IMG/VR virus record: IMGVR_UViG_3300046025_000024
Location: 1 to 35,829 of that record
Length of the DNA stretch: 35,829 nucleotides
Origin: a virus
Lineage: Duplodnaviria; Caudoviricetes
Strand: one strand, 5' to 3'
Made by a program: the position numbers and the translations under genes. Shown here piece by piece: positions 19,318 through 34,792 of this stretch. The notes under the pieces are model-generated. The model had not been told where the DNA came from. It saw nothing but the letters and a program-made list of their open reading frames with translations, and did not search any database. Within the stretch, counting starts at the first letter, position 1; every line of letters begins with the position of its first letter.

Positions 19318-19590
19318 ATGCCGGGAAACACCCCAGATAGCGCCGGCCCGCCCGGCGGGCTCCCCGAGCAGGCGGCCGACCGAGCTCGGGCGGCCGTCGA
19401 GGACGTCTTCGGAGGCGCGGTCGCGAACATCCAGAAGCTCGAGGAGACGCCGGACGGGACGCGCGTCGAGGCCGACATCGACGGCGTCTTCCGCGGCGTC
19501 CTGATCGACGACCCGGATAGCGACACTGCCGCGATCGCGACCGCGAGCGGCGAGAACTACCTGATGCACATCCAGATTCGAGAACTATGA
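19318..19590 (+). CDS. Hypothetical protein
   Basis: 90 aa, coupled to neighbours, typical codon use. Confidence 0.75.
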   Translation: MPGNTPDSAGPPGGLPEQAADRARAAVEDVFGGAVANIQKLEETPDGTRVEADIDGVFRGVLIDDPDSDTAAIATASGENYLMHIQIREL

Positions 19591-20429
19591 CCGAAAAGGC
19601 ACACCCCTCGATCAATCGTACCGCAGATCCGTTCAAGACCGCCGTCGGCTTCGCGGAAGCCGGCGGGACCGGCGCGGGCTTCGTCGTCGGCGGCGCGTCG
19701 CCGACCGAACTCGCGGCCCAAGACGCGGGTATCGACGAGACGCAACTGAACGCGTTCGCCGAGTCGCACGCGACGGACTCGTACGACGTCACGATCGACC
19801 CCGGCGAGGCGTACGTGTACGGGTCGTGGATAGCGAAGGACACTGCGACGACCGTCACCGTCGCCGAGTCGACGGCGGACCAGACGATCTACGCCGGCTG
19901 GAATAAGGACTCGCCGGACGACGTCATCGTCGGTCTCGCCTCGGCGTTCGAGGAAGCCGACGGCGATACGGATATGAAGATACCGCTGTACGACGTGGAC
20001 AGCGACGGGAGCGGCGTCACGGCGGTTACGGACCGGCGCGCGTTCTCGCCGCCGATGCGTATCGAAGACCTCGTCGACTCGCCGAACGGGACGCCGCCGA
20101 TCGCGCTACTCGACGATACCGAGTCGATCGAGATTACCGTCCCGGTCGCCGACGGCGAGACGCTGAAGGTGTACCGGTGGGGGAACTACAAGATCGCGGA
20201 CGGAACCGCGCCGACCGGTCTCGACGTCGAGCTTCTGGACGGCGGCGATACCGTTCAGGCATCGGCGAACGTCGTCGACGACGAGTCGACCGACCCGGCG
20301 AGTCCGGTTGCTTCGTACCAAAACGCGTCGGGGTCGGTCTCGATCTTCAAACTACGGTCGAAGAACTCGACCGGGAATAACTACACGAGCAAAGGCGTTG
20401 GGTCGCACTTCGCGTACATCGTCGAATAA
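19587..20429 (+). CDS. Tail fibre protein
   Basis: VTIDPGEAYVYG N-terminal pattern seen in fibre attachment domains; beta-rich C-terminus. Confidence 0.6.
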   Translation: MTEKAHPSINRTADPFKTAVGFAEAGGTGAGFVVGGASPTELAAQDAGIDETQLNAFAESHATDSYDVTIDPGEAYVYGSWIAKDTATTVTVAESTADQTIYAGWNKDSPDDVIVGLASAFEEADGDTDMKIPLYDVDSDGSGVTAVTDRRAFSPPMRIEDLVDSPNGTPPIALLDDTESIEITVPVADGETLKVYRWGNYKIADGTAPTGLDVELLDGGDTVQASANVVDDESTDPASPVASYQNASGSVSIFKLRSKNSTGNNYTSKGVGSHFAYIVE

Positions 20430-21046
20430 TGAGTCTAACGCAACACGAGTGGGCGGTCCTTCATGATCTGCCTGCGCCGGCGCGAAAAAATAGGTCGGTC
20501 GTCGAACAGATCATCGCGCATCTTCGAGGATTCGGAATTAAAGGACGGGGGCCTCAGTCCGGTGGGCGAGGTATCAAGAGGTCTGTTTTGCCCGACGTCC
20601 TTGTAGAAGATGGCACCGTAGATGACTGGTATTCATTTGCGGTGAAAGACCCCGGAGATTACGTTGTGAATACGGATTCGGTTGACCTCATCGGCGAAGA
20701 TACGGGCGAAGGCACGGATGGTAACTACGCCGAGTTAGTGACGTCGGAGTTCGACAAAGGGGATGTGGATTCTGTCGATATAGATTTCGCATTAGAGCAG
20801 TCTGGTGATACGAACACAAACCCATCTGATTACAAATTTGTAATATACGAAACCGACCCCGATTCTCCAATCGCGACCTATGGCGACGACAGCGTTAATA
20901 ATGACCTGAGCAGAGCTGTGCGGACTGTTGACCTCTCTGGAATAGATGGGACTGGGAAATTGAGATTTCGGTCGTGGAGGACTTCGTCCGGGAAGTACGA
21001 GACTTTCGGAGGAACTGTAACAGCGTGGGATATCTTTTGGAACTAA
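20429..21046 (+). CDS. Putative receptor-binding / adhesin protein, lower GC
   Basis: TAATG coupling to fibre gene, last gene of tail operon, many A/T-ending codons. Confidence 0.55.
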   Translation: MSLTQHEWAVLHDLPAPARKNRSVVEQIIAHLRGFGIKGRGPQSGGRGIKRSVLPDVLVEDGTVDDWYSFAVKDPGDYVVNTDSVDLIGEDTGEGTDGNYAELVTSEFDKGDVDSVDIDFALEQSGDTNTNPSDYKFVIYETDPDSPIATYGDDSVNNDLSRAVRTVDLSGIDGTGKLRFRSWRTSSGKYETFGGTVTAWDIFWN

Positions 21047-21285
21047 TCGTCTAAATATGACAATAGACCCCGCGCTGATGATGGCCGTCGCCGGCGCGAT
21101 CGGGTCGCTCGGGACGGCGATCGTGTCGTTCTTTTTCTCTGGGACCTCCTGCTGCTCGGCCTCGAACCCGGCATCGCCACTGCTCTGAGTGGCGTCAACG
21201 AACGCCTCCTCAAGTCGCTGGAGATTTCGGGCGTCCTCGAGCATAGCCGGATGCTTATCTGACCATTGGATCACCCGTCGAACAG

Positions 21286-21291
21286 TTTATG
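21286..21291 (+). promoter_or_regulatory. TATA-like box for leaderless gene at 21316
   Basis: TTTATG 30 nt upstream of ATG. Confidence 0.5.
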
Positions 21292-21315
21292 AGGGCTGGT
21301 TGAACAGTGGTCGGT

Positions 21316-21564
21316 ATGGGACTCTTCGACAGCGCGACTAGTGAACAGATCCACCGAGATCAGGTTCAGGTCGACGAGCGCGAGGGTGCGATCAATGTCG
21401 ACTACGGGCAGGACCAGTCCGTGAACTCGAAAGTACAGAACCAAGTTCAGAACACGCTGCTCGCCGAACTCATTTTCAGTAATCGCCGTCAGAACGCCCT
21501 CCTTGAGGAGCAGAACGAGCTACTCGAGCGACAGAACCAGCTTTTAGAGGAGCGCTCGGAGTAG
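21316..21564 (+). CDS. Small Q/N-rich coiled-coil protein (moron-like)
   Basis: Own promoter candidate; C-terminal QNALLEE-QNELLER-QNQLLEE heptads. Confidence 0.75.
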   Translation: MGLFDSATSEQIHRDQVQVDEREGAINVDYGQDQSVNSKVQNQVQNTLLAELIFSNRRQNALLEEQNELLERQNQLLEERSE

Positions 21565-21586: not shown

Positions 21587-22195
21587 TCAAATCGTCATAA
21601 AGTGGTCGTACAGCCGCTCGGTCGTGAGGATGGAGGCGTGCCGCAGGCGGTTTCTGACGTCGTAGAGAGTGTTGGACTCTTCGGCGCGTAGCATCCGCCA
21701 GGCGACGCTGTGGCGCAGCGTGTGGGCGGAGACATCCTCCGGGTCTCCACGGCCTGAAAAGCAGTAGGGACGCACGCCCGCTCGTCGAGCCGCCCGCTGA
21801 ACGACATCATTAATCCCCTTCCCGGTCATTCGGTCTGACTTCTGGCTGCTTATCAGGGCCGCGGCGTCGTTCTGCCGCGCCTCGAGATACTCCTCGACCG
21901 TTGCGACCGTCTGAAGAGATCCATCTCTATCCAGTTGGAATGTCGCCGGCGGCGGCACCTGATCGTTCGGGTAGTCCTTTTGAATCGACGTCGGGACCCG
22001 CAACTGCTCTTCTTCGAGGTCGACCATGTCACGATCGACGAGCGCCGCCTCTCCACGTCGGAGCCCGGTGTCGTAGAGCACGGTCACGATCGCGGCGTCG
22101 CGCTCGGGATGACGGCCGTCGCGAACGACGTCTCGCATCGCCTCGACCTGAGCGGGTTTGAGCCAGTACTGATCGTCGGTGTCGGCCGCAGGCAT
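21587..22195 (-). CDS. Tyrosine recombinase, catalytic domain only (XerC/D-like)
   Basis: DTGLRRGE (R), IQKD (K), HTLRHS (HxxR), RLRH (H), LYDH (Y); only 202 aa. Confidence 0.92.
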   Translation of the reverse strand: MPAADTDDQYWLKPAQVEAMRDVVRDGRHPERDAAIVTVLYDTGLRRGEAALVDRDMVDLEEEQLRVPTSIQKDYPNDQVPPPATFQLDRDGSLQTVATVEEYLEARQNDAAALISSQKSDRMTGKGINDVVQRAARRAGVRPYCFSGRGDPEDVSAHTLRHSVAWRMLRAEESNTLYDVRNRLRHASILTTERLYDHFMTI

Positions 22196-22440
22196 TTGTA
22201 ACTAGGCTATCAGTGTCGACGGGCTAATAATGTTCGATTCCTCTGACAGACTCGAACATTTCTGCCCATTGCGCCGACGCAAACCATCTCCCTCTGGTGA
22301 TCTGCCTCGACGCAACCCGGTTTCTCCACGCGAACCCTTGGGGTTCGACGTCGAGGATACACCTGCAGAACCACCAAATAAACCTCATGTAGCTATATCG
22401 AGTTTCGAGAGCGGGGTAGGAGCAGTCGAGGGCTGACACT

Positions 22441-22489
22441 ACCTTACCAAACAATTTAATAGAGAAGCGGTTTAATTGTTTGGTAAGGT
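22441..22489. repeat. Inverted-repeat site 1
   Basis: ACCTTACCAAACAATT 22441-22456 / AATTGTTTGGTAAGGT 22474-22489, perfect 16 bp arms; contains TATA-like TTTAAT; ends just before ATG 22491. Confidence 0.9.
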
Positions 22490-22490
22490 T

Positions 22491-22829
22491 ATGACTTCAG
22501 ACCAGCAACCTGCTCCCCCCGGCGAGATTCCGAACTACATCGCTGACGGCCTCCAGCGCCAGGCCGTCCCAACCCTTCACGCGATCATCTCGTACTGCGA
22601 GGACCTCATCGAGTACCTCGAACAGCCACCCGACGAGGAGGACCTCGCGGCGGACGACGACGTCGTCGACGTCGAGGAGAGCGAGAACGGCGGGACGATC
22701 GTGAAGAAGATGCAAAAGTGCGGTACCGACTGCACCTGCAACGACGGGAAAGGCCACGGGCCGTACAAGTGGCGGGTCACGAGAGACGGAGACGGCGGTC
22801 AGGACTGGGACTATCTCGGGAAGGCGTAA
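22491..22829 (+). CDS. DUF6788-like zinc-binding, probable DNA-binding protein
   Basis: KCGTDCTCNDGKGHGPYKW...YLGK motif. Confidence 0.75.
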   Translation: MTSDQQPAPPGEIPNYIADGLQRQAVPTLHAIISYCEDLIEYLEQPPDEEDLAADDDVVDVEESENGGTIVKKMQKCGTDCTCNDGKGHGPYKWRVTRDGDGGQDWDYLGKA

Positions 22830-22830
22830 G

Positions 22831-22965
22831 ATGGGCCAGTACATCTGCGATCTCTGCAACGAGAGTGTCCCAGACGACGAGGTTTGGCCAGCGATGGTCG
22901 ACGGCGAGCGTGTCGTCGCGTGCGATGATTGCCGGCCAGAGGGCTCAGAGATTACGTTGAGTTGA
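22831..22965 (+). CDS. Zinc-finger microprotein (44 aa)
   Basis: MGQYICDLCNE...ACDDCRP, two CxxC; starts 1 nt after previous stop; absent from ORF track. Confidence 0.75.
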   Translation: MGQYICDLCNESVPDDEVWPAMVDGERVVACDDCRPEGSEITLS

Positions 22966-22972
22966 GGACCGG

Positions 22973-23132
22973 AAAAGCATAGCCGCCATCACGGCGGTCA
23001 CTGACAAGCTCTCCTCACAGCGTCGGCGTCCTTCGCCTCGAGCTGGGTGTCGCGGTGACGGCCGAGGCCGGCCGTCGAGATCCCCGGCCAGCCCGAGACG
23101 AAGGGGGCGGCCTCCGCGTGGGAGCTTATGCA
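22973..23132 (-). ncRNA. Putative structured small RNA
   Basis: TTTAAA at 23156-23161; 17 bp stem 23104-23088 / 23046-23030 whose two non-WC pairs are G-U on the minus strand; 3' hairpin then CTTTT. Confidence 0.6.
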
Positions 23133-23214
23133 TTCCTCTAAACGTGCCAACTGCATTTAAAGACCCGCCATGCTCGGTGAAAGTGAACGAAAACCTTCAG
23201 AGGAAACGGTGGGG

Positions 23215-23580
23215 TCAGCGACCTTCTTTCATCCAGTCGCGGACGATGAAGTTGATCGCCGCGTTCCGGCTGAGCTCCATCTCCTCCGCGAACTCGTCGA
23301 CGTCCTCGATGAGGTCGCGAGGTGAGCGTAGGGTCGTTTCCTTCCGGTCCTCGAATCCGCTTCGACCTGAGGGATCTAATTTCTCGTACCAGTCCTCGTA
23401 ACCGTCCGCGCCGCCGTGGATTTTGTTGTGGCAGGACCGACACACAGGTAGGAGGTTCTCGAGATCGTCGTTCGACTTATCTCCGTCGGCGTGGTGAACG
23501 ACGATCTCCTCGGTCGCGTCGCAGATGTGGCAGACTTCCTCCTTCCTGGAGAGGCATTTTTCGCGATACGCGGTAGTCAC
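23215..23580 (-). CDS. HNH endonuclease fused to a C-terminal ribbon-helix-helix domain
   Basis: CHIC...VHHADGDKSND..NLLPVCRSCH..IH, then TTLRSPRDLIEDVDEFAEEMELSRNAAINFIV. Confidence 0.85.
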   Translation of the reverse strand: MTTAYREKCLSRKEEVCHICDATEEIVVHHADGDKSNDDLENLLPVCRSCHNKIHGGADGYEDWYEKLDPSGRSGFEDRKETTLRSPRDLIEDVDEFAEEMELSRNAAINFIVRDWMKEGR

Positions 23581-23981
23581 TCTTGCGCGCCTTCACGTCC
23601 CAAGCGTTCAATGCTTTCTTTGAGTTCCTTGGGTTCCATTCCTTCTAAGCGTTCCAGGCCGAGAGAGACGACGAGCGGATAGTAGTACCGTGTTTTCTGT
23701 AACGAGCGTCCGTATTCTTCCTCAAATGCGAGGTCGAGGTGCTTGTAGCGCGTCGTGAGTTGCCGTTCCAAGAAGTCGGGGAGGTAGACGCTCGTGGCAG
23801 TCCATTCCTTCTTGACGTTCTCGGCGAGCATTGCATTCCCCCCATTCACATCTTTCCTTGAAGCCTTTTCGTTCTTTGCGTTCTTGGAAGTCTGTGAAGG
23901 CTGTGAGTTCTCGTCATTCGTGGAATCGTCGTCATCGAACCGACGTCGGAGCCGGTCGCGAACTTGGTCTTCGTCAGTCAT
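23577..23981 (-). CDS. ParA partner (putative RHH-type centromere-binding adaptor)
   Basis: Overlaps parA stop; disordered N-terminus then TSVYLPDFL strand-helix pattern. Confidence 0.65.
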   Translation of the reverse strand: MTDEDQVRDRLRRRFDDDDSTNDENSQPSQTSKNAKNEKASRKDVNGGNAMLAENVKKEWTATSVYLPDFLERQLTTRYKHLDLAFEEEYGRSLQKTRYYYPLVVSLGLERLEGMEPKELKESIERLGREGAQE

Positions 23982-24750
23982 GGTCGATCGCCTCCAGGTA
24001 GTCCGCGATCTCCTCGTACACTGCACGCATGTCCGTCTCCTCAGCATCGGCACCGAAGATAGAACCGCCAGACCCCAGAGACCGTTTGATCGCGGCGCGA
24101 TGGCGAATCTCGAAAATCGGGCAACGACCCTCGAACGTCTCGGTGAACCAGTCGATAGCCGAGCGCTGCTCGTTGTCGAGAGGGTAGTTTACGTTTGAGA
24201 TGAGGACCGCGCTTTCCTCGACGTCCATGTCGTAGTCGACCTCAAGAGAGTCGATCTGGTTCATGAGGTGCTCGATAGCGAGAATCGACGTTTCCGCCGC
24301 CTCGACGGGGATGAGAAGGTTACTGCAGGCGAGGAGGACGTTGTCGTTGATCGGGCCGAGCGAGGGCGGCGCGTCGACGATGAAGTAATCGTATCCGGTG
24401 AGCTCGTCGAGGAGCTGCCGGAACCGGAGGCGCGGACGTCGGCCGCTCGCGATGAGGTCCTGCTCCAGCCGGAACATATCGATGTTCGAGGGGACGACGT
24501 CGAACTCCTCGTGGTGGACGATGATATTGTCAAGATCCGTCTCGGCGGGATTTTTCATCGCCGAGTACAGCGTCGGGTCGTCCGCGAGATACGCGTCGCG
24601 GAGGTCGAGCGTGTTGGTGAGGTATCCCTGTGGGTCGAGATCGGCGACCGCGACGTGATGGCCACGGTCGGCGAGCGCACCGGCGAGATTGATCGTGTTC
24701 GTCGATTTGGCGACGCCACCTTTCTGATTTGCTATCGCGAACGTCTTCAT
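23974..24750 (-). CDS. parA: ParA/Soj family partition ATPase
   Basis: Deviant Walker A NQKGGVAKST, DLDPQG, IVDAPPSLG. Confidence 0.95.
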   Translation of the reverse strand: MKTFAIANQKGGVAKSTNTINLAGALADRGHHVAVADLDPQGYLTNTLDLRDAYLADDPTLYSAMKNPAETDLDNIIVHHEEFDVVPSNIDMFRLEQDLIASGRRPRLRFRQLLDELTGYDYFIVDAPPSLGPINDNVLLACSNLLIPVEAAETSILAIEHLMNQIDSLEVDYDMDVEESAVLISNVNYPLDNEQRSAIDWFTETFEGRCPIFEIRHRAAIKRSLGSGGSIFGADAEETDMRAVYEEIADYLEAIDHD

Positions 24751-24820
24751 GGAACGGTTGGAATTCCCTGCGTGCAAAGATAAAACTACGTCAGACGTTC
24801 GTCATAGACGACGCCCGACG

Positions 24821-24869
24821 ACCTTACCAACCGCTCGGGCTAGTCACCCCTTCAGATGTTTGGTAAGGT
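24821..24869. repeat. Inverted-repeat site 2
   Basis: ACCTTACCAA-N29-TTGGTAAGGT between repressor stop and parA promoter. Confidence 0.9.
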
Positions 24870-24902
24870 CACGGCGGCGGTCGCGACGGTCTCGGTCACG
24901 CG

Positions 24903-25181
24903 TCACTCTTCGTCGAGTTCCAGAAGATCGTCCGGTTCGAGTTGCTGTTCGACGTACTGTCGACCGAGATCAGTTACGCTGTAGTATGGATGTGTTCCGT
25001 CGTCGTCCTTTTCGAGGAGACCGCGGTCGACCAGACTTGAACAGCGGCTAGATACATGCCGTCGCGAAAGTCCCGTGTTTCTGGCGATGCTCCCGCTCCG
25101 GAGTTCGAGCGGCTTGGGAGGCCCGAGGAGCCGAAGAATTGCGTCGTCTGCCGGGACCATCCAGTCGACGCGACGGTACAT
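24903..25181 (-). CDS. phiH1 Rep-like winged-helix repressor
   Basis: RRVDWMVPADDAIL...VSSRCSSLVDRGLLE...YYSVTDLGRQY pattern. Confidence 0.85.
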   Translation of the reverse strand: MYRRVDWMVPADDAILRLLGPPKPLELRSGSIARNTGLSRRHVSSRCSSLVDRGLLEKDDDGTHPYYSVTDLGRQYVEQQLEPDDLLELDEE

Positions 25182-25205
25182 GGAGAAAAACCAGAATCGT
25201 AGCGG

Positions 25206-25282
25206 CTTAATTTGTGCCTATCGCGACGGTAATTCCTTCTTTCTAGAAGTGCAGTTCCTTCTTTTAGGAACAAGCTTAAGTT
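25206..25282. promoter_or_regulatory. Divergent promoters with tandem operator candidates
   Basis: AATTAAG (minus) about 26 nt before repressor ATG; CTTAAG 25275-25280 (plus); TTCCTTCTTT at 25233 and 25255 (22 bp apart), the second within GTTCCT-N6-AGGAAC. Confidence 0.65.
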
Positions 25283-25304
25283 AGCCCGCTGAATACTCGC
25301 CTCT

Positions 25305-25381
25305 GACGAAGGTTATCGTACGCTATGCTGCTCTCCGAAAAGGCAGCCGGTGTGCCAGCACCGACCGCGGTAGCCTTCGTC
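25305..25381 (+). ncRNA. Three-stem RNA at the 5' end of the rightward transcript
   Basis: 14 bp stem 25305-25318 / 25368-25381 enclosing hairpins 25327-25347 and CGGTG-TGCCAG-CACCG 25348-25363. Confidence 0.55.
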
Positions 25382-25430
25382 GTTAGCCTCGTGAAGGCGA
25401 GATCTCGGGCTTAATCTGGCCCGAGATCGA

Positions 25431-25730
25431 GTCTTCCCGAATCCCTCGGAAAGACATGTTCGCGTTCACCCGACACCCTAAAAGAAATGTCGTTTCTCCC
25501 GTCATTAGCTTGACTATTATCCCATGTCTACCGAGGGGTAACGACAGATTACGGGTACTGCTCAGCCTCAGTTTCACTTTCACGGTGCTGTTGGCGAGCA
25601 TTTATGTGTTCCGTAATCATAGAGGTTCGGTGAACGCACGAATCAAGGAACGCATCGGGGATCCGCTCCAGGCAAAATCCTGCTCCCACGCACATCTCGC
25701 CGCGGATCTCCTTCCACATCGGAGGCCTAG
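25431..25730 (+). ncRNA. Structured leader element copy A
   Basis: GCGTTCACC 25462-25470 / GGTGAACGC 25629-25637; shares GAACGCRCGAATCAAGG, CCTGCTCCCACGCA and GGAGGCCTAG with copy B. Confidence 0.6.
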
Positions 25731-25836
25731 GAATGAACACTCCCTTTAGGTGCTACCACCTAACACCAGCTCCCATCGCTCGGCGTCTGTTCGGCAACAG
25801 ACATTTGTCAGACGCACGTGGGGTGACTAGCTGGAG

Positions 25837-25845
25837 TTTTAAGTA
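25837..25845 (+). promoter_or_regulatory. TATA-like box upstream of leader copy C
   Basis: TTTTAAGTA. Confidence 0.5.
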
Positions 25846-25897
25846 CCGGGGGAGCAAATCTCGTAATCAACAAGATAGGAGCGCAGATCACACCCGC

Positions 25898-26028
25898 GGC
25901 TGGGCGGAAGTAGGAACCGAGGAAGGTGGAACTACCTTGGTTTTCTACGGCCGTCATCATAAGCCTACCGGACAGCATGAGCTACAGCACTGTCCTGGGC
26001 GGGTCACGAGCTGCTCCCACGACCAGCC
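25898..26028 (+). ncRNA. Structured leader element copy C
   Basis: GGCTGG/CCAGCC closing stem, two inner stems, TACCGGAC shared with copy B, CTGCTCCCACG 26011-26021, ATG at 26033. Confidence 0.55.
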
Positions 26029-26032
26029 AATC

Positions 26033-26428
26033 ATGCACACCCCAAGCACGATCACCACGGACGTATCGAAATTCGAGGAGTACCGTCGCTCCAGCGCCGT
26101 GGTACCACGACGAACGGCCGTAGAAACGGTATCGCTTTCAACGCGGAACCAGCATGGTACCACGCTCGGCGCTGTTGAAGAAGAAAGCGGTAAAACGAGT
26201 AGCCCCCTTGAACCGACCACGGTCGGCAGAGACGAAACCGCCGGACGTAGTGGTAGGACCACCCTCCCAGACGACCTGCCAGTTCGCGTAGGTGCTTTCA
26301 ACACTACTACTTACTGGAACCAAAACGATACCACAACCACCACACAGATGATAAGACGGCCCAGCCCTGGTACCACATGGCTGGTACCACGCGCCGTCGA
26401 CGCTGAAACCGGAGGTGGTGCGGCTTGA
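26033..26428 (+). CDS. Thr-rich leader ORF overlapping the iteron region (frame also open from 25733)
   Basis: Ends in GGAGGTG SD and TTGA overlap with next gene; low-complexity sequence. Confidence 0.45.
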   Translation: MHTPSTITTDVSKFEEYRRSSAVVPRRTAVETVSLSTRNQHGTTLGAVEEESGKTSSPLEPTTVGRDETAGRSGRTTLPDDLPVRVGAFNTTTYWNQNDTTTTTQMIRRPSPGTTWLVPRAVDAETGGGAA

Positions 26429-26953
26429 CCGAGCGCGTCCAGCTGGGCTGGCGTGTTCCTGCCGACGTCTGGGACCGGTTCGAGGACTTCGTCTACGAGA
26501 AACACGGCGCTACGGGCCCGTACCTCCGGTTCGAGCTCGAGTGCGCGATGCGTGAGTACCTCGATGATGACGGCGTCCTGGCGGAGGCAGAGAAGCTCCT
26601 CAAGGAGTCCACGGACCTTCGTGGGCTTTCTTCTTCAAAGCCAGTAGTTGGTACCGACCGGTACCACGGTGCTGATACGAGGAAGCTCTCCCACCGAATC
26701 AACGCTGAACTCAAAGAGCGGTTCCAGATCTTCGCCGACAAGCACGACGCGAGTTCCTACGGCCGCCTGCTGGCGGCTACACTGGATGCTTACACTGATG
26801 GCGGGCGAGCGCGCCGGATCCTCGAGGACGTCGAACGGCTCGTCACAGGCGGTACCAGTGGTGGTACCACAGGCGAGTCTGTTGAAAACGACGGAGATTC
26901 GGATGAGACGGGGCTTTCAACGGCCGAGGAGAGTGGTACCAGTGACGGTACCA
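26100..26953. repeat. Iteron-like GGTACC repeat cluster, candidate replication origin
   Basis: GGTACC at 26101, 26156, 26369, 26383, 26650, 26660, 26851, 26863, 26935, 26947, several with TTCAAC/GTTGAA at fixed 11-12 nt spacing. Confidence 0.7.
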
Positions 26954-27585
26954 CCGCCGAGATCCGGGTAGAACCGAGCGAGGTCGTGGAGATCGCGGAC
27001 ACTATCGTCGAGGACCCCACCAACACGATGATCCCGAAGCAGCTCCTCGACGAGAAGATCGTCTCCATCGCAGGTGTATCAACTGCAGATGCGATCGACG
27101 CCTATCGCGAGGCCGTCCTGAACCACCTGAACGCCGACGATCATCCGCACAACGACCGCGTCTACACTACCGAGGCGTACCGCGAGGAACACACACTCTG
27201 GGCCGACCTCAATCGCGACGAGCGTCTCGTCCTCCTACGGCGCTACGCTGCGGCCGACGCCGTCGAGCACCGCGACCGCACCCGCTGCTTCGATTACAAG
27301 GACGTCCAGGACCTCTTCGAGCACAATGCCGGCGGTGGGGGACCGTCTCACGAGTACGCGTACCAGTTGATGGAGGACGCGGCCGACGAACCCGGATTCA
27401 AATACGACAAATTCCACGGCCAGTTGCAGCTCCGAGTAGACCTCAGCGATGTCAACTGGTCGATCAAGAAATACGCATTTGAACAGAACCCGGATGCCGC
27501 GACCGAGGAGATCCGGCGCAACTTGGACATCACGACCTACACGGCCGGTTCGCCGCCGCAACAGGAAGGGATGGCCGATGACTAA
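26425..27585 (+). CDS. Putative replication initiator / DNA-binding protein with two RHH-like repeats
   Basis: VQLGWRVPADVWDRF and RKLSHRINAELKERF; iterons inside the gene; TTG start with SD; the initiator role is inferred. Confidence 0.55.
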   Translation: MTERVQLGWRVPADVWDRFEDFVYEKHGATGPYLRFELECAMREYLDDDGVLAEAEKLLKESTDLRGLSSSKPVVGTDRYHGADTRKLSHRINAELKERFQIFADKHDASSYGRLLAATLDAYTDGGRARRILEDVERLVTGGTSGGTTGESVENDGDSDETGLSTAEESGTSDGTTAEIRVEPSEVVEIADTIVEDPTNTMIPKQLLDEKIVSIAGVSTADAIDAYREAVLNHLNADDHPHNDRVYTTEAYREEHTLWADLNRDERLVLLRRYAAADAVEHRDRTRCFDYKDVQDLFEHNAGGGGPSHEYAYQLMEDAADEPGFKYDKFHGQLQLRVDLSDVNWSIKKYAFEQNPDAATEEIRRNLDITTYTAGSPPQQEGMADD

Positions 27586-27736
27586 GATCCCGTGCTCGGA
27601 GGAGGAGATCGAGGCGGCCGTCCTCGAACTGGACGAGAAACTGGCAGTCGAATCCGATGAGATCGAGGAAACGTACGCGGCGAACTTCCAAAGCGTGACG
27701 GCAGACGACGACAGCGTGTTCGTCTATCAGGGGTGA
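27578..27736 (+). CDS. Small acidic hypothetical protein (52 aa)
   Basis: MTKIPCSEEE..., overlaps upstream stop. Confidence 0.7.
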   Translation: MTKIPCSEEEIEAAVLELDEKLAVESDEIEETYAANFQSVTADDDSVFVYQG

Positions 27737-27769
27737 GACGCCGTGCGAGCCGGCGAGTGCTTTCCGCTG

Positions 27770-27819
27770 ACCTTACCAAACACTCGGCCTCTTCCTCTCC
27801 GCCAGATGTTTGGTAAGGT
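27770..27819. repeat. Inverted-repeat site 3
   Basis: ACCTTACCAAACA...TGTTTGGTAAGGT; right flank CAGATGTTTGGTAAGGTC identical to site 2. Confidence 0.9.
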
Positions 27820-27826
27820 CTGGGCG

Positions 27827-28057
27827 CTACTCGCGGAACCAGACGACGCCGCCCAGCTCGTCGAACTTTTTGCTCGCGATAGCGCCCTCGTCCTCGAGGT
27901 CGCGGAGTAGTTCGTACGCGCGCGAACGCGAGATGTCGAGACGCGAGGCGACCTCCCGCGTACTACGCGGCTCGTGGCTGGAGAAGAGGTCGTCGACGAC
28001 GTCGTCCGGGTCGACCGTCGGCTCGAACCGACCGGTGTCTTCGTTCCGTTTCGGCAT
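27827..28057 (-). CDS. Small winged-helix regulator
   Basis: STREVASRLDISRSRAYELLRDLEDEG HTH, KK..GGVVW wing. Confidence 0.85.
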   Translation of the reverse strand: MPKRNEDTGRFEPTVDPDDVVDDLFSSHEPRSTREVASRLDISRSRAYELLRDLEDEGAIASKKFDELGGVVWFRE

Positions 28058-28164: not shown

Positions 28165-28300
28165 CTGGATCTCTCTCGCGACGCGCGGACTCCCGGCTCC
28201 CACCTCGTAAAACATCGGGAGAACGCGCGAATCAAGGGTACCGGACCTCGCGAGAGGTCCAGTGCTCCAGGGCAACCTGCTCCCACGCAAGGAGGCCTAG
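28165..28300 (+). ncRNA. Structured leader element copy B
   Basis: Closing stem CTGGATCTCT/GGAGGCCTAG, inner stems with GCGA and GCAA tetraloops, CCTGCTCCCACGCA 28276-28289, ATG at 28304. Confidence 0.65.
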
Positions 28301-31594: not shown

Positions 31595-32520
31595 TCCTCG
31601 AGATCGTCACCCGCGAACACGAGGAGGGGAACACCGTCCGGAACAAAGACGAGGTCGAGCGCACCCACGACGTCCGCTCGATCACCCTGCGCCCCGGCCC
31701 CGACGGCAACTACCGGCTCGGCGTCGACACCCCAAGCTCCTCCCGCGGAACGTCCATCGACCCGGAGTTCGAGTACATCGAAATCTTCGACGAGGACGCG
31801 CACAACGCTCGCGGGAGCGCGGTCTGCGGGGCTGACGAGACGTGGGTGAAGACGGTGGTCTCGGAGGAGAAGTACGCGGTCCTCCACGGCCTCGCCCACT
31901 ACGGCTCGGACATGAGCCTCTCGACCGTCGGCGACGTGATCCGGCGCGCGCTCGAGGAGTTCATCGCGCGCCAGGACTTCGACGAGTGCCCGAAGTGCGA
32001 GGCCTCGATCACGCAGGTCTGGGTCGACGACCGCGAGCAGCGGGACCGCCCGGTCGCGGTCGCCGAGCCCTGCAAGTGCGAGCACCCGCCGAACTTCGCG
32101 CCCGACCCGATCGGCTACGACAACATCGACGCGCTGAAGAACGAGTTCGGCATCGACGCGCCGCTCGCAGTCGAGATGTGGCGCGCGGGGATCCGTCCGA
32201 CGGTCGGTGGCCGCAGCGGTCTCCGGACACTTTCCCGGATCGCCGAGCACGACGACCTGGTCGCGGCAGCGCTGCGCGAGGCGGCCACCCAGTACCAGTC
32301 GAGTGTCGACGACGAGGACGTCGACATCGACGGCGATGACCTCGGCATGCTCCACACGCTCGCGAGCGACATCGAAGACCTCCCCGAGGACGGCACCAGC
32401 CGACCGACGGCCGAGGAACTCAAGCGCGCCGACGAGAGCGAGCTCGTTCGCGAGGTCCGGCGTCGCGGGTACGACGTCCCGGCCCGAGAGATCACGGCCG
32501 ACGGAGGTGGCGATGAGTAA
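31591..32520 (+). CDS. Multi-domain hypothetical protein with RHH-like segment and CPKC...CKC zinc motif
   Basis: VKTVVSEEKY...VGDVIRRALEEF then CPKCE. Confidence 0.75.
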   Translation: MILEIVTREHEEGNTVRNKDEVERTHDVRSITLRPGPDGNYRLGVDTPSSSRGTSIDPEFEYIEIFDEDAHNARGSAVCGADETWVKTVVSEEKYAVLHGLAHYGSDMSLSTVGDVIRRALEEFIARQDFDECPKCEASITQVWVDDREQRDRPVAVAEPCKCEHPPNFAPDPIGYDNIDALKNEFGIDAPLAVEMWRAGIRPTVGGRSGLRTLSRIAEHDDLVAAALREAATQYQSSVDDEDVDIDGDDLGMLHTLASDIEDLPEDGTSRPTAEELKRADESELVREVRRRGYDVPAREITADGGGDE

Positions 32521-32896
32521 CTTCGAGCGCTCCACCAGCGGCCAGGCGTCCCGTACCGAGCCGGAGCTGTCGCTCTACCGGAACGGCGACGCCCGGCTCA
32601 ACCAGCCAGCCGTCGAGCAGTACCTCGAGGGCGTCGACTCGATCGCGTTCTACACCGACGGCGAGACCGACCGCCTCGGCATCAACCGCGGCGACGAGGG
32701 CCCGCACTCAAAGACCGTCCAGGTTGGCGACCACGGCGGGTTCGCGTTCTACATCGGCGCTCTCCTTCGCGAGGAGTTCGACCTCCCCGTCAAGGAGATC
32801 TCCGAGTCAATGGCGCTCCCGGTCGAGCACGACCTCAAGGAGGGCCTGCTCGTCGTCGACCTCGACCCCTTCATGGAGGCGAACGATGCCGAGTAG
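32513..32896 (+). CDS. Hypothetical protein
   Basis: MSNFERSTSG..., GGAGGTG SD. Confidence 0.8.
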   Translation: MSNFERSTSGQASRTEPELSLYRNGDARLNQPAVEQYLEGVDSIAFYTDGETDRLGINRGDEGPHSKTVQVGDHGGFAFYIGALLREEFDLPVKEISESMALPVEHDLKEGLLVVDLDPFMEANDAE

Positions 32897-33362
32897 CGCC
32901 TCCCAGTACCTCGAGAAGACGGTGAAGTCGCGCCAGGAGTACTGGTACGAGGTCCACGAGGCCCGCGACGAGGACCACGAACTCCAACTAATCCCCGTCG
33001 ATCAGGTGCCGCCGCAGTACGTGTCCGCTGCCGAACTCGCCGACCGGATGGCTGACGGCTGGGAGCTCGTCTACGACGGGACGACCGGCGTCCTCGACGA
33101 GGCCGATGGGCACGATGATGGAGAGTCCGAGCCGAGGACCTCGGGAGATCCCGCTGGCGCTGATGCACGAACGAGCACAGATGGCGGCGTGGCAGTGGCC
33201 GACTCGGCTGACGAGTCCGAGTCGGGCCCGGTACGCGTCTCCTGCAGTACGTGCGGGACCTCTCGAAATGTCGAGGAGGACGAGGACCCCGAGGAAGTCG
33301 TTGAGGACCACTGCTCGCTCGGGTGCGACGACGCCCAGATCGAGGAGGTAGAGAAGGCGTGA
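32886..33362 (+). CDS. Hypothetical protein with C-terminal zinc motif
   Basis: MPSSASQY..., CSTCG...HCSLGC. Confidence 0.75.
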   Translation: MPSSASQYLEKTVKSRQEYWYEVHEARDEDHELQLIPVDQVPPQYVSAAELADRMADGWELVYDGTTGVLDEADGHDDGESEPRTSGDPAGADARTSTDGGVAVADSADESESGPVRVSCSTCGTSRNVEEDEDPEEVVEDHCSLGCDDAQIEEVEKA

Positions 33363-33514
33363 CCCTGAGTCCTCTGACGGAGATGGCACTCGCGTTGCCT
33401 CACCTCGTCGAAGACGAGGCAGACGAGGACGTCCTCGTCGAGCCCGAACAGCGCGACCTCGAGGGCAACCCGACCGGCCAGACGACGTTCGACGTGGAGG
33501 AGGACGATGTTTAG
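33359..33514 (+). CDS. Small acidic hypothetical protein
   Basis: GTGA overlap, GGAGGT SD. Confidence 0.6.
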   Translation: MTLSPLTEMALALPHLVEDEADEDVLVEPEQRDLEGNPTGQTTFDVEEDDV

Positions 33515-33809
33515 GCGGTTCATCGACGCCATCTACGACGGCCTGCTCGGCGTGGGCGACGACGACACGCTCGAGATGGAGAACTACGACGGCCCCGACC
33601 ACCCGGTGGGCGAGGGCCTGCAGCTGACCGACACGGGAACCGCTCGCGAGTTCCAGGACGCCATCGCTGACGAGGTGCAGGTGGCGCTGGTCCCGGGGGA
33701 GGATCCCCGGCTGGCCGAGCTGTCGCTGACCTTCGTCGACGAGAACGGTGTCAGCCGCGAGTGGACTGCAACGCACCACGACTATGACTCGAAGAACTAC
33801 GATGACTGA
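33507..33809 (+). CDS. Hypothetical protein
   Basis: 100 aa, GGAGG SD. Confidence 0.8.
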   Translation: MFRRFIDAIYDGLLGVGDDDTLEMENYDGPDHPVGEGLQLTDTGTAREFQDAIADEVQVALVPGEDPRLAELSLTFVDENGVSREWTATHHDYDSKNYDD

Positions 33810-34089
33810 CGCGGACAACGCTCCCGACTTGGAACCAGCGAACAGTACGGAGATCCGAGAGTTTCTCGAAACGACTCAGGGCAAGGCACTCATCGTCGAA
33901 CTCGACTACTGCACTGCACACTTCGTTGTCGAAGATGGCGAGCACAAAATCGCCGAACAGGAAACGGACGCCGACGACGCCTTACCGTTCGTCGTCAAGA
34001 GTCGTCTCCGCTGGGAGGGCATCCTCGAGAACTATCTCGGCCGAGACGACGGTCAGGCAACCTTTCAGGAGGTGGAAGATGTCGAGTGA
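33802..34089 (+). CDS. Hypothetical protein
   Basis: MTDADNAPDL..., overlaps both neighbours. Confidence 0.75.
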   Translation: MTDADNAPDLEPANSTEIREFLETTQGKALIVELDYCTAHFVVEDGEHKIAEQETDADDALPFVVKSRLRWEGILENYLGRDDGQATFQEVEDVE

Positions 34090-34792
34090 CGACCGGCTGG
34101 ACGAGCTCGCGGAGCGGGACGACCTGCTCCTGTTGAGCGACAGCAACGACCGGACCGCCTATCTCGGCGGCGGCCCCGACCACTTCGTTAGCGAAGTCCA
34201 CGACGACTCGCCGGGACCCCAGCAGAAGACCATCGAACGCGCGGCCGCGAAGCGGATGGTCCGTGGCTGGAACGTCGTCGGCTTCGAGGACGTCCCTCGA
34301 GCCGACGAGTTCGAGCCGCCCGCGTGGGTCGGCGAGTACGAGACGGAGACGTACCGCGGGTTGATGCTCTACCCGGCGCCCGGGGACTGGGAGCTCTCGA
34401 TCGTCGAGGGAGACTGCATCAGATGGAAGCGCCCGGAGATGCCCGGGCCCGAGGACCAGTACTGGGAGTCGCACGACTCCTGGAGCCCGGACAACGAAGC
34501 CGGGACGATCAACGAGTTCGAGCTCGGCGGCGGCTTCAACCCCGACGAGACGGTCACCACCCGGTTCTCCGTCGACGGCGAGACCATCTTTTCGCTGACG
34601 GACCCCTCGCACGATGAACTGATGGCGCCCATCGCTGAGATCCTCGCCCGTGTCGCCGGCGACGAGGACCTCGAGGAGATCGTCGACGACGTCGAGCTCC
34701 CGAGCGACGCCGAGGAGCCGAAGACAGCCGAGGAGATCGCGGAGGAGAACGGCAGCACGCTCGGCGACTTCGCCGGTGGTCGCGATGACTGA
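34079..34792 (+). CDS. Hypothetical protein
   Basis: MSSDDRLDEL..., GGAGGTG SD, ends TLGDF. Confidence 0.8.
   Translation: MSSDDRLDELAERDDLLLLSDSNDRTAYLGGGPDHFVSEVHDDSPGPQQKTIERAAAKRMVRGWNVVGFEDVPRADEFEPPAWVGEYETETYRGLMLYPAPGDWELSIVEGDCIRWKRPEMPGPEDQYWESHDSWSPDNEAGTINEFELGGGFNPDETVTTRFSVDGETIFSLTDPSHDELMAPIAEILARVAGDEDLEEIVDDVELPSDAEEPKTAEEIAEENGSTLGDFAGGRDD

Follow-up and report, generated by a model that had tools for sequence, protein, structure and literature searches.

The viruses phiH1 and phiCh1 are classic viruses of archaea. Their transcripts have been mapped, and they differ by an unexplained inversion of genes, 'Inversion 2', which was published as 31,932-34,126 and noted as near int2 (PMC6210493). 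Their L region carries int2, PhiH1_250 or its homologue, an HNH gene, a ParA partner, parA, repR, repH, imm, padR and pcnA. In the passages available from the genome papers PhiH1_250 is termed 'uncharacterized' (PMC6210493, PMC6471424), Int2 is given no assigned target, and the inverted-repeat sites treated below find no mention. The window analysed here is a virus record of 35,829 bases (IMG/VR IMGVR_UViG_3300046025_000024, the whole record), with myovirus structural genes and, at 21-31 kb, an L region of the phiH1/phiCh1 type (Vertoviridae) as judged from protein matches. It has the genes listed above apart from repH, with int2, parA, repR, imm, padR and pcnA in the conserved order 3' of the tail genes; the place of repH is taken by an unrelated open reading frame (ORF) of 386 amino acids (aa). 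Like the L regions of phiH1 and phiCh1 it also contains three inverted-repeat sites, here called boxes, which a DUF6788 protein homologous to PhiH1_250 is predicted to bind, and beside int2 a different repeat of 32 bp.

With a probability of roughly 0.6, these elements would represent an autoregulated network of DUF6788 operators on plasmid replicons, together with a separate dimer-resolution module formed by Int2. New here are the boxes of phiH1 and phiCh1, the match of one of them to the published inversion, a second inversion, and a candidate site for Int2. With the mapped transcripts and the published inversion of phiH1 and phiCh1, the DUF6788 system becomes directly testable in them.

Inverted repeats and the DUF6788 gene

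Six exact ACCTTACCAA arms form three inverted-repeat sites of 49, 49 and 50 bp in the window, at the positions where the original prediction had placed them (22441, 24821 and 27770). With at most one mismatch there are nine matches to ACCTTACCAA, compared with 0.21 expected, and nine were reached in none of 100 shuffles. The arms can be extended to 13 bp in five of the six cases. Bacteria and AT-rich viruses also have exact-pattern matches of the arm motif. At site 1 the inverted repeat is perfect over 16 bp and ends 1 bp 5' of the DUF6788 ATG (22491). This site had been said to overlap the promoter of the DUF6788 gene, and so it does: the spacer holds a TATA-like box, and the mapped start of phiH1 transcript T8 (31672) falls inside the right arm of the matching phiH1 site, again with a TATA-like box in the spacer. 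The spacer sequence common to sites 2 and 3, once taken for direct repeats, recurs in other elements (L004, L098, L168) and is thus a family consensus rather than a private direct repeat. Gene conversion between sites 2 and 3 was rejected as its main cause on the same ground.

The DUF6788 call in the window is close to threshold (PF20586, 27.3 bits, with a cut-off of 27.2). The predicted structure (pLDDT 88) has two helices, an acidic linker and a beta-sheet of three to four strands with a Cys/His motif. No Foldseek match at E 0.001 was obtained with the whole-protein model (best VIA Z 4.4), which also gave nothing above background for DNA-binding folds such as AP2, integrase arm-binding and WRKY, considered as candidates for the beta-sheet. 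A profile search returned no solved relative, and members of the family match no ParB family.

Relatives of DUF6788 are found in 85 of 401 halobacterial genomes and in 36 plasmid records; a related-locus search of viral contigs gave none, and one relative of Int2. When 44 DUF6788 loci were examined, 39 gave a tblastn hit, and 28 of these 39 genes have, near the start codon, an inverted repeat whose arms match in at least 11 of 13 positions, compared with 1 of 117 shuffles; the 28 include one repeat of another kind, and the same phiCh1 sequence is counted in two rows. When the motif was scanned for strictly, after the removal of 12 duplicate or partial rows, 36 of 58 DUF6788 genes from haloarchaea had a box at their start. 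On a tree of these 36 the central triplet of the arm follows the protein clades, with 8 changes compared with 19.5 after shuffling and one change each for the TGT and ACC arm types. At the level of genomes (n = 401) the motif is present in 71 of 85 with DUF6788 and 124 of 316 without. Its rate is 79% in genomes with DUF6788 and no Int2 hit, 51% in those with Int2 and no DUF6788, and 36% in those with neither. This comparative evidence supports the view, already put forward in the original prediction, that DUF6788 is an arm-binding, autoregulated protein.

The original prediction had also named the short recombinase and the ParA partner as candidates for co-occurrence with the motif across haloarchaeal genomes; boxes lie near few of their loci. 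Under the relaxed scan, which supplies the figure used, a box was found within 1.5 kb of 4 of 30 Int2 loci (2 of 30 in the first, stricter scan), and within 1.5 kb of 1 of 20 ParA-partner loci. At most seven Int2 candidates were scored per genome, so that the genome tallies for Int2 may include misses. Within 5 kb of 39 cellular DUF6788 genes, which are not independent loci, there are cdc6/orc1 genes in 19 cases, parA in 8, an integrase of the 391-aa type in 2 and Int2 in none.

These counts bear on the proposal that the boxes are parS-like centromeres read by the ParA partner. Site 2 adjoins the parA promoter and parA is among the recurrent neighbours of DUF6788, but the single partner locus with a box nearby is itself a DUF6788 promoter. 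Moreover, an IMG/VR relative (L019) has the same arms as the window and a partner only 25% identical, while phiH1 has different arms and a partner 74% identical. A centromere of this kind is highly improbable. DUF6788 may itself serve as a partition adaptor, a role that falls under the explanation preferred here.

The length of the box core varies from 42 to 48 bp, even inside one genome, with arms 20-25 bp apart. The DUF6788 module also occurs in fusions: five genomes have it after N6/N4 methyltransferases, and some database proteins after HNH or DUF6884 domains. In these fusions (L138-L142, P0023, P0032, P0050, P0071, P0089, P0090) the DUF6788-like module is C-terminal, and in the five methyltransferase fusions no box lies directly 5' of it. 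They were found through genome frames and profile search; a word-index search for longer forms, which is a weak test, gave none.

Two boxes enclose a type I restriction-modification operon in each of two genomes (L092 4033-14237 and L101 4813-14336); the operon is shared, at about 92% identity, and the left neighbours differ. In L004 (1226-3067) a full-length tyrosine recombinase of 391 aa, adjoining a toxin-antitoxin pair, has one CCA-type and two ACC-type boxes in its flanks. A literature search on 'DUF6788' found no paper and one on an arm type with haloarchaeal plasmids found nothing, in a coverage that omits most subscription papers; for gene tags and arm strings, only two genome papers among the matches listed were relevant by title.

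Boxes in phiH1, phiCh1 and related viruses

With a matrix built from 22 arms, three boxes were located in phiH1 (31630-31679, 34077-34126 and 38205-38254) and three in phiCh1 (31808-31857, 33588-33637 and 37642-37691), at places equivalent to those of the window; L019 also has three at equivalent places. The arms of phiH1 and phiCh1 carry T for C at position 7, changed on both sides. A fourth box lies near 53.5 kb in both viruses, outside the L region; the window stops before the matching region. This box (L192 11587-11636 in phiCh1, L193 11522-11571 in phiH1) follows the end of a long rightward operon by about 20 bp, and the CxxC gene PhiCh1_425/PhiH1_445 lies downstream of it. In ChaoS9 the DUF6788 gene is of a distant subfamily and sits at the opposite side of int2; it has an arm type to itself, which is seen at the start of this gene and again after orc1.

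The phiH L plasmid had been offered as a parallel for autonomous modules delimited by the sites. According to the passages of PMC6210493 that deal with it, this plasmid is mobilised by ISH1.8/ISH12. Its ends do not coincide with boxes.

An integrated element with thirteen boxes

The largest array was found in Halosimplex pelagicum, in which 13 of 14 box matches fall at 2,259,538-2,533,683, a low-GC stretch of 274 kb with genes for replication, ligase, reductase and methylase (from a scan of 110 of its 371 ORFs). One box lies over the DUF6788 start and the other 12 are of equal length. The spacing is more even than random (coefficient of variation 0.41, p 0.0013). No PF00589 match was found inside the 13-box span; there are integrases to either side, at 2.20 and 2.57 Mb, and no relative of Int2 was found in the genome, for which all 29 candidates were scored. 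The surroundings (G001:C1, about 2.21-2.57 Mb, L069-L086) have the appearance of an integrated low-GC element of at least 300 kb, which also encodes ribonucleotide reductase, thymidylate synthase, NAD ligase, a primase-polymerase, several TFBs and paired cdc6 genes.

All the H. pelagicum boxes are intergenic and many are 25-110 bp 5' of a start, as would be expected if each box were simply the operator of a neighbouring promoter, whether of the DUF6788 gene, parA, cdc6/orc1 or a toxin-antitoxin gene, with no structural role. The same could be said of site 1 over its promoter, of site 2 just upstream of the parA promoter, of boxes in L004, L096 and L097 that precede antitoxin genes by about 40 bp, and of boxes near cdc6 genes. 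Yet in the window, phiH1 and phiCh1 alike site 3 is placed where two genes end convergently, a regulon would not be expected to be spaced evenly over 274 kb, and the genes beside the boxes have no common function. A purely transcriptional role for all of the boxes is unlikely. Boxes as 3'-end terminators were also considered, many being just past stops, and rejected as a general rule, as 4 of 12 distal sites in H. pelagicum are between divergent starts.

The form of the boxes has also been compared with folded single-strand sites of the integron attC type and with transposon ends. The arms end AAC...GTT or ACA...TGT and, as described below, rearrangement breakpoints fall in arms. The sequences give no sign of an extended hairpin: the inner halves show 61 paired matches, compared with 67 for shuffled partners (p 0.94), and there is no Rfam match. 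The terminal CA expected of transposon ends is present in only 28 of 36 cases and absent in H. pelagicum. Either identity is scarcely tenable.

Int2 and its 32-bp repeat

As the original prediction had it, the 202-aa recombinase has no N-terminal binding domain: PF00589 spans residues 11-198, so that Int2 consists of the catalytic domain only. Residues R46, K73, H158, R161, H186 and Y196 are invariant in 30 relatives, which completes the R-K-H-R-H-Y set, and the nearest structure to the Int2 model is the XerA catalytic domain (5hxy, E 1.3e-7, TM 0.70). An Int2 profile run over the window found only Int2 itself as a tyrosine recombinase.

The 32-bp repeat, which the original prediction did not note, has one copy in the window, next to int2, and in ten whole genomes 11 of 12 copies are directly upstream of an int2-like gene. 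Its geometry, at a threshold of at least 10 of 13 pairs, is kept at 25 of 33 int2-family loci (two partial hits and one duplicate having been dropped) as against 0.6% of shuffles. Positions 1-13 pair in 17-28 of 28 cases (position 10 in 11 of 28) and the central three pairs in 7-12 of 28; because the same centre scores at other even lengths, the 13+6+13 division was taken from this drop in the central six positions. The arms change on both sides in the group with 48-52% identity and are clade-specific across haloarchaea. In phiH1 the annotated int2 start (31465) overlaps the repeat (L026 31434-31461), and the true start is probably further downstream.

The core sites of the dif/lox class have arms of 11-13 bp about an asymmetric spacer of 6-8 bp and are kept with the recombinase gene; dif itself consists of two 11-nt arms and a 6-nt spacer, according to the relevant part of PMC8371274. 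The 32-bp repeat has this form. The DUF6788 boxes, with their widely separated arms and long cores, do not, although a weak inner consensus in some box families may conceal a nested recombinase core. From sequence comparison the 32-bp repeat is likely to be the binding and recombination site of Int2 itself. For targeting, Int2 does not seem to depend on DUF6788, which weakens any model in which the two act as a pair. Int2 thus gains a concrete candidate site, which bears on how catalytic-only recombinases find DNA and on how polyploid haloarchaea keep plasmid prophages monomeric.

Rearrangements at or beside the boxes

Relative to the window and phiH1, the parA-DUF6788 block between sites 1 and 2 is inverted in phiCh1. 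Site 2 of phiH1 has its last base at 34,126, the boundary published for 'Inversion 2' as given in the available part of PMC6210493. Site 1 has moved as a whole with the block, including its spacer (18/24 identical, compared with 11 shuffled), and the spacings to the int2-side promoter motif and the repR stop differ by only 1-3 bp; the phiCh1 breaks are therefore in the outer arms or no more than about 35 bp from them. A second inversion is found in L019, which has a parA of the phiCh1 type in the uninverted orientation and an inverted repR block (sites 2-3). The repR end of this block lies the usual 32 bp from site 3; its opposite end is less clearly defined. In the relative on contig IMGVR_UViG_3300046062_000023 (L029, 3094-5276) there are, besides the inversion, only short ORFs between sites 2 and 3, neither RepH-like nor of the window type.

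A third type of event is seen on comparing L166 with L004. The box spacer (22/24) and right flank (57/60) are identical to this extent while the left flanks are unrelated, at shuffle level, which places the break at the left arm. The homology of the window with phiH1 begins again at the left arm of site 3, and that between L168 and L098 ends at a box; these two homology ends are weaker evidence, since a conserved motif can itself lengthen an alignment. Other module borders are away from boxes, among them the left end of the rep swap near 25,740, the parA swap and a toxin-antitoxin loss. Breakpoints lie in or outside the arms, away from the site centres. The resolved events keep whole spacers with one flank, at a resolution mostly of about 35 bp, and selection for the site-1 promoter may bias the survivors. 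As regards coexisting arrangements, one contig-only DNA run with 6% of words gave no joint informative on flips.

Recombination at or beside the arms has thus happened, as far as these genome comparisons can tell. The expectation that modules excise, resolve or swap at the sites was borne out in part: blocks have been inverted or swapped at or beside them in nature, but the events do not name a catalyst, and 13 bp of inverted homology could suffice.

The alternative is a two-component or shufflon-like system, in which arm-bound DUF6788 would recruit a short tyrosine recombinase, Int2 or a different one, and blocks would be inverted, excised or swapped. It draws on two independent box-bounded inversions, the L166/L004 break at an arm and the homology ends at boxes. 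It is also favoured by the presence of int2 and the DUF6788 gene as neighbours or within about 2 kb of each other in 5 of 5 viruses examined, by boxes adjoining recombinase genes in L004, L109, L110 and L112, and by the fixed length of the H. pelagicum sites with their fixed 6-bp centre. On the other side are the canonical-looking site of Int2 itself, the absence of Int2 near any of the 39 cellular DUF6788 loci, and the lack of a recombinase fusion among the five fused loci and 25 long DUF6788 relatives scanned. The core length is variable, the crossovers map to arms and could be explained by 13-bp homology alone, and the module borders just listed are not at boxes. The specific claim that DUF6788 lends its specificity to Int2 is not supported, in view of the first two of these points and of the 13-site span, in which no tyrosine recombinase was found. 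The wider system is unlikely. It is equally unlikely that DUF6788 is an exchangeable addressing module that pairs distant boxes and hands them to Int2 or a short host relative. If it were, archaea would shuffle partition, immunity, replication and defence blocks from arm to arm, with specificity residing in a separate protein of zinc type that can be swapped and that also occurs in fusions with methylases and HNH nucleases.

A model for the DUF6788 boxes and Int2

In the operator-network explanation, oligomers of DUF6788 would bind both arms of each box. The protein very probably reads each arm of 10-13 bp through its beta-sheet/Cys-His module and oligomerises through its helices, while the acidic linker would tolerate core lengths of 42-48 bp. 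Autorepression at site 1 is probable. The distal boxes would mark or organise the plasmid-state genome of the virus, at initiator, partition and toxin-antitoxin loci and at intervals; whether they serve replicon upkeep by site pairing or bridging, in the manner of KorB/OB or MatP/matS, is an evenly balanced proposition drawn from analogy. Identical and possibly bridged arms might then be short-homology hot spots for rare inversions and swaps, without a programmed switch, an idea that is slightly favoured. It is reasonably likely, again by analogy, that Int2 acts at its 32-bp site as Cre does at loxP on a plasmid prophage. It would keep the prophage monomeric by resolving genome dimers there. 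Orthogonal pairs of arms and proteins could become tools for haloarchaeal genetics.

Several observations count against this explanation. Binding, repression and catalysis are predictions from sequence comparison. Kin share labels, so that the tree of arm types reflects clustering and not independent co-evolution, and many of the loci are near-copies. Among the 58 DUF6788 genes 22 have no strict-pattern site: five are the methyltransferase fusions, phiH1 and L019 have an extra ORF separating box and gene, some have one degenerate arm and others show no site. The motif occurs in the 124 genomes scored as DUF-negative, a figure to be read with the facts that the query misses distant subfamilies and that the control pattern has a background too. 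Among DUF-negative genomes it is more frequent where Int2 (51% against 36%) or the ParA partner (64/109 against 60/207) is present. Boxes are found beside recombinases in some loci, including the 4 of 30 Int2 loci, three with the box 17 bp past the stop, and the 391-aa integrase in L004 flanked by three boxes. Two 210-aa recombinases are encoded elsewhere in the H. pelagicum genome, and its boxes, with their fixed length, inner consensus and variable 6-bp centre, resemble a recombinase core. Finally, the 32-bp repeat could be an operator only.

Other features of the window

The coordinates of the L-region features are collected in Table 1. Two statements about what the sites enclose have to be amended. 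Sites 1 and 2 do enclose the parA pair, but also the DUF6788 and HNH genes. Sites 2 and 3 enclose a RepR-like gene, as stated; for the 386-aa ORF no match was found to RepH of phiH1 or to a named Rep family, so that the labels 'rep' and 'origin' rest on position and on the GGTACCAC cluster. Distant relatives of this ORF adjoin boxes in L098 and L168. The GGTACCAC matches sit within the two ORFs between sites 2 and 3 and are possibly iteron-like origin repeats inside a putative initiator gene. A stretch of about 70 bp is duplicated (73% identity) at 25629-25692 and 28217-28288, 5' of two rightward operons; phiH1 makes early lytic and antisense transcripts in this region. The tail-fibre invertase int1 was not detected in the window (19587-21564); phiH1, phiCh1 and ChaoS9 differ in this respect. 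Rfam, PADLOC (for the recombinase, DUF6788, the partner and the 386-aa ORF) and sigma-70/terminator scans gave nothing relevant.

Table 1. Features of the L region in the window (positions in the 35,829-base record)
Feature	Positions	Strand	Remarks
int2, catalytic-domain-only tyrosine recombinase, 202 aa	21587..22195	-	64-70% identity to Int2 of phiCh1, phiH1, ChaoS9
32-bp inverted repeat, 13-bp arms, 6-bp non-palindromic spacer	22229..22260		33 bp before int2 start
Site 1, DUF6788 box over DUF6788 promoter	22441..22489		TATA-like TTTAATA in spacer, 22455-22461
DUF6788 protein, 112 aa	22491..22829	+	homologue of PhiH1_250 / PhiCh1_230; likely box binder
HNH-family gene	23215..23580	-	family match
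ParA partner	23577..23981	-	homologue of PhiH1_260
ParA ATPase	23974..24750	-	family match
Site 2, DUF6788 box	24821..24869		between parA promoter and repR stop codon
RepR-like repressor	24903..25181	-	66% to phiH1 RepR
Cluster of all 10 GGTACCAC matches of the window	26099..26954		0.28 expected by chance
386-aa ORF at repH position	26425..27585	+	phrog_29021 match only
Site 3, DUF6788 box	27770..27819		between convergent gene ends; phiH1 homology resumes at left arm
Imm-like regulator	27827..28057	-	74% to phiH1 Imm

Comparison with known systems

Among bacterial systems, the boxes can be compared with the KorB/OB and KorA/OA operators of plasmid RK2, as far as these are described in the available part of PMC11790492. 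In both, a plasmid-encoded protein has dispersed palindromic operators, putative ones in the case of DUF6788, on one replicon, including one at the regulator's own promoter, with a link between partition and repression. KorB, however, is a CTPase clamp of the ParB family, whereas DUF6788, at 112 aa, is too short and has no ParB/CTPase match, and an RK2 operator is one compact palindrome where the DUF6788 box has two arms 20-25 bp apart (PMC11790492). MatP/matS of Escherichia coli is similar in that a small protein and repeated sites mark one large DNA domain. In contrast, no sequence or fold match to MatP was found, the boxes are on mobile replicons rather than a chromosome terminus, and they cover the promoter of their own presumed binder.

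The Rci/sfx shufflon of R64 resembles the boxes in having several short repeats in alternating orientation and inverted blocks. It differs, judging from the portion of PMC11852207 consulted, in its conserved 7-bp core and right arm, which the boxes do not show, and in its dedicated invertase gene, for which the boxes have no counterpart tied to the repeats; one arrangement per genome was seen.

The boxes do not fit the geometry of Cre/loxP or Xer/dif, but Int2 and its repeat do resemble these systems as they appear in the sections available. Like Cre/loxP of P1, Int2 has a single two-armed candidate site on a plasmid-type prophage (PMC2409434), and like Xer/dif it has intact catalytic residues and a two-armed candidate site with a 6-bp asymmetric spacer (PMC8371274). 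Unlike Cre and Xer, Int2 has no N-terminal domain, its putative site lies beside each copy of its gene, and its activity is predicted.

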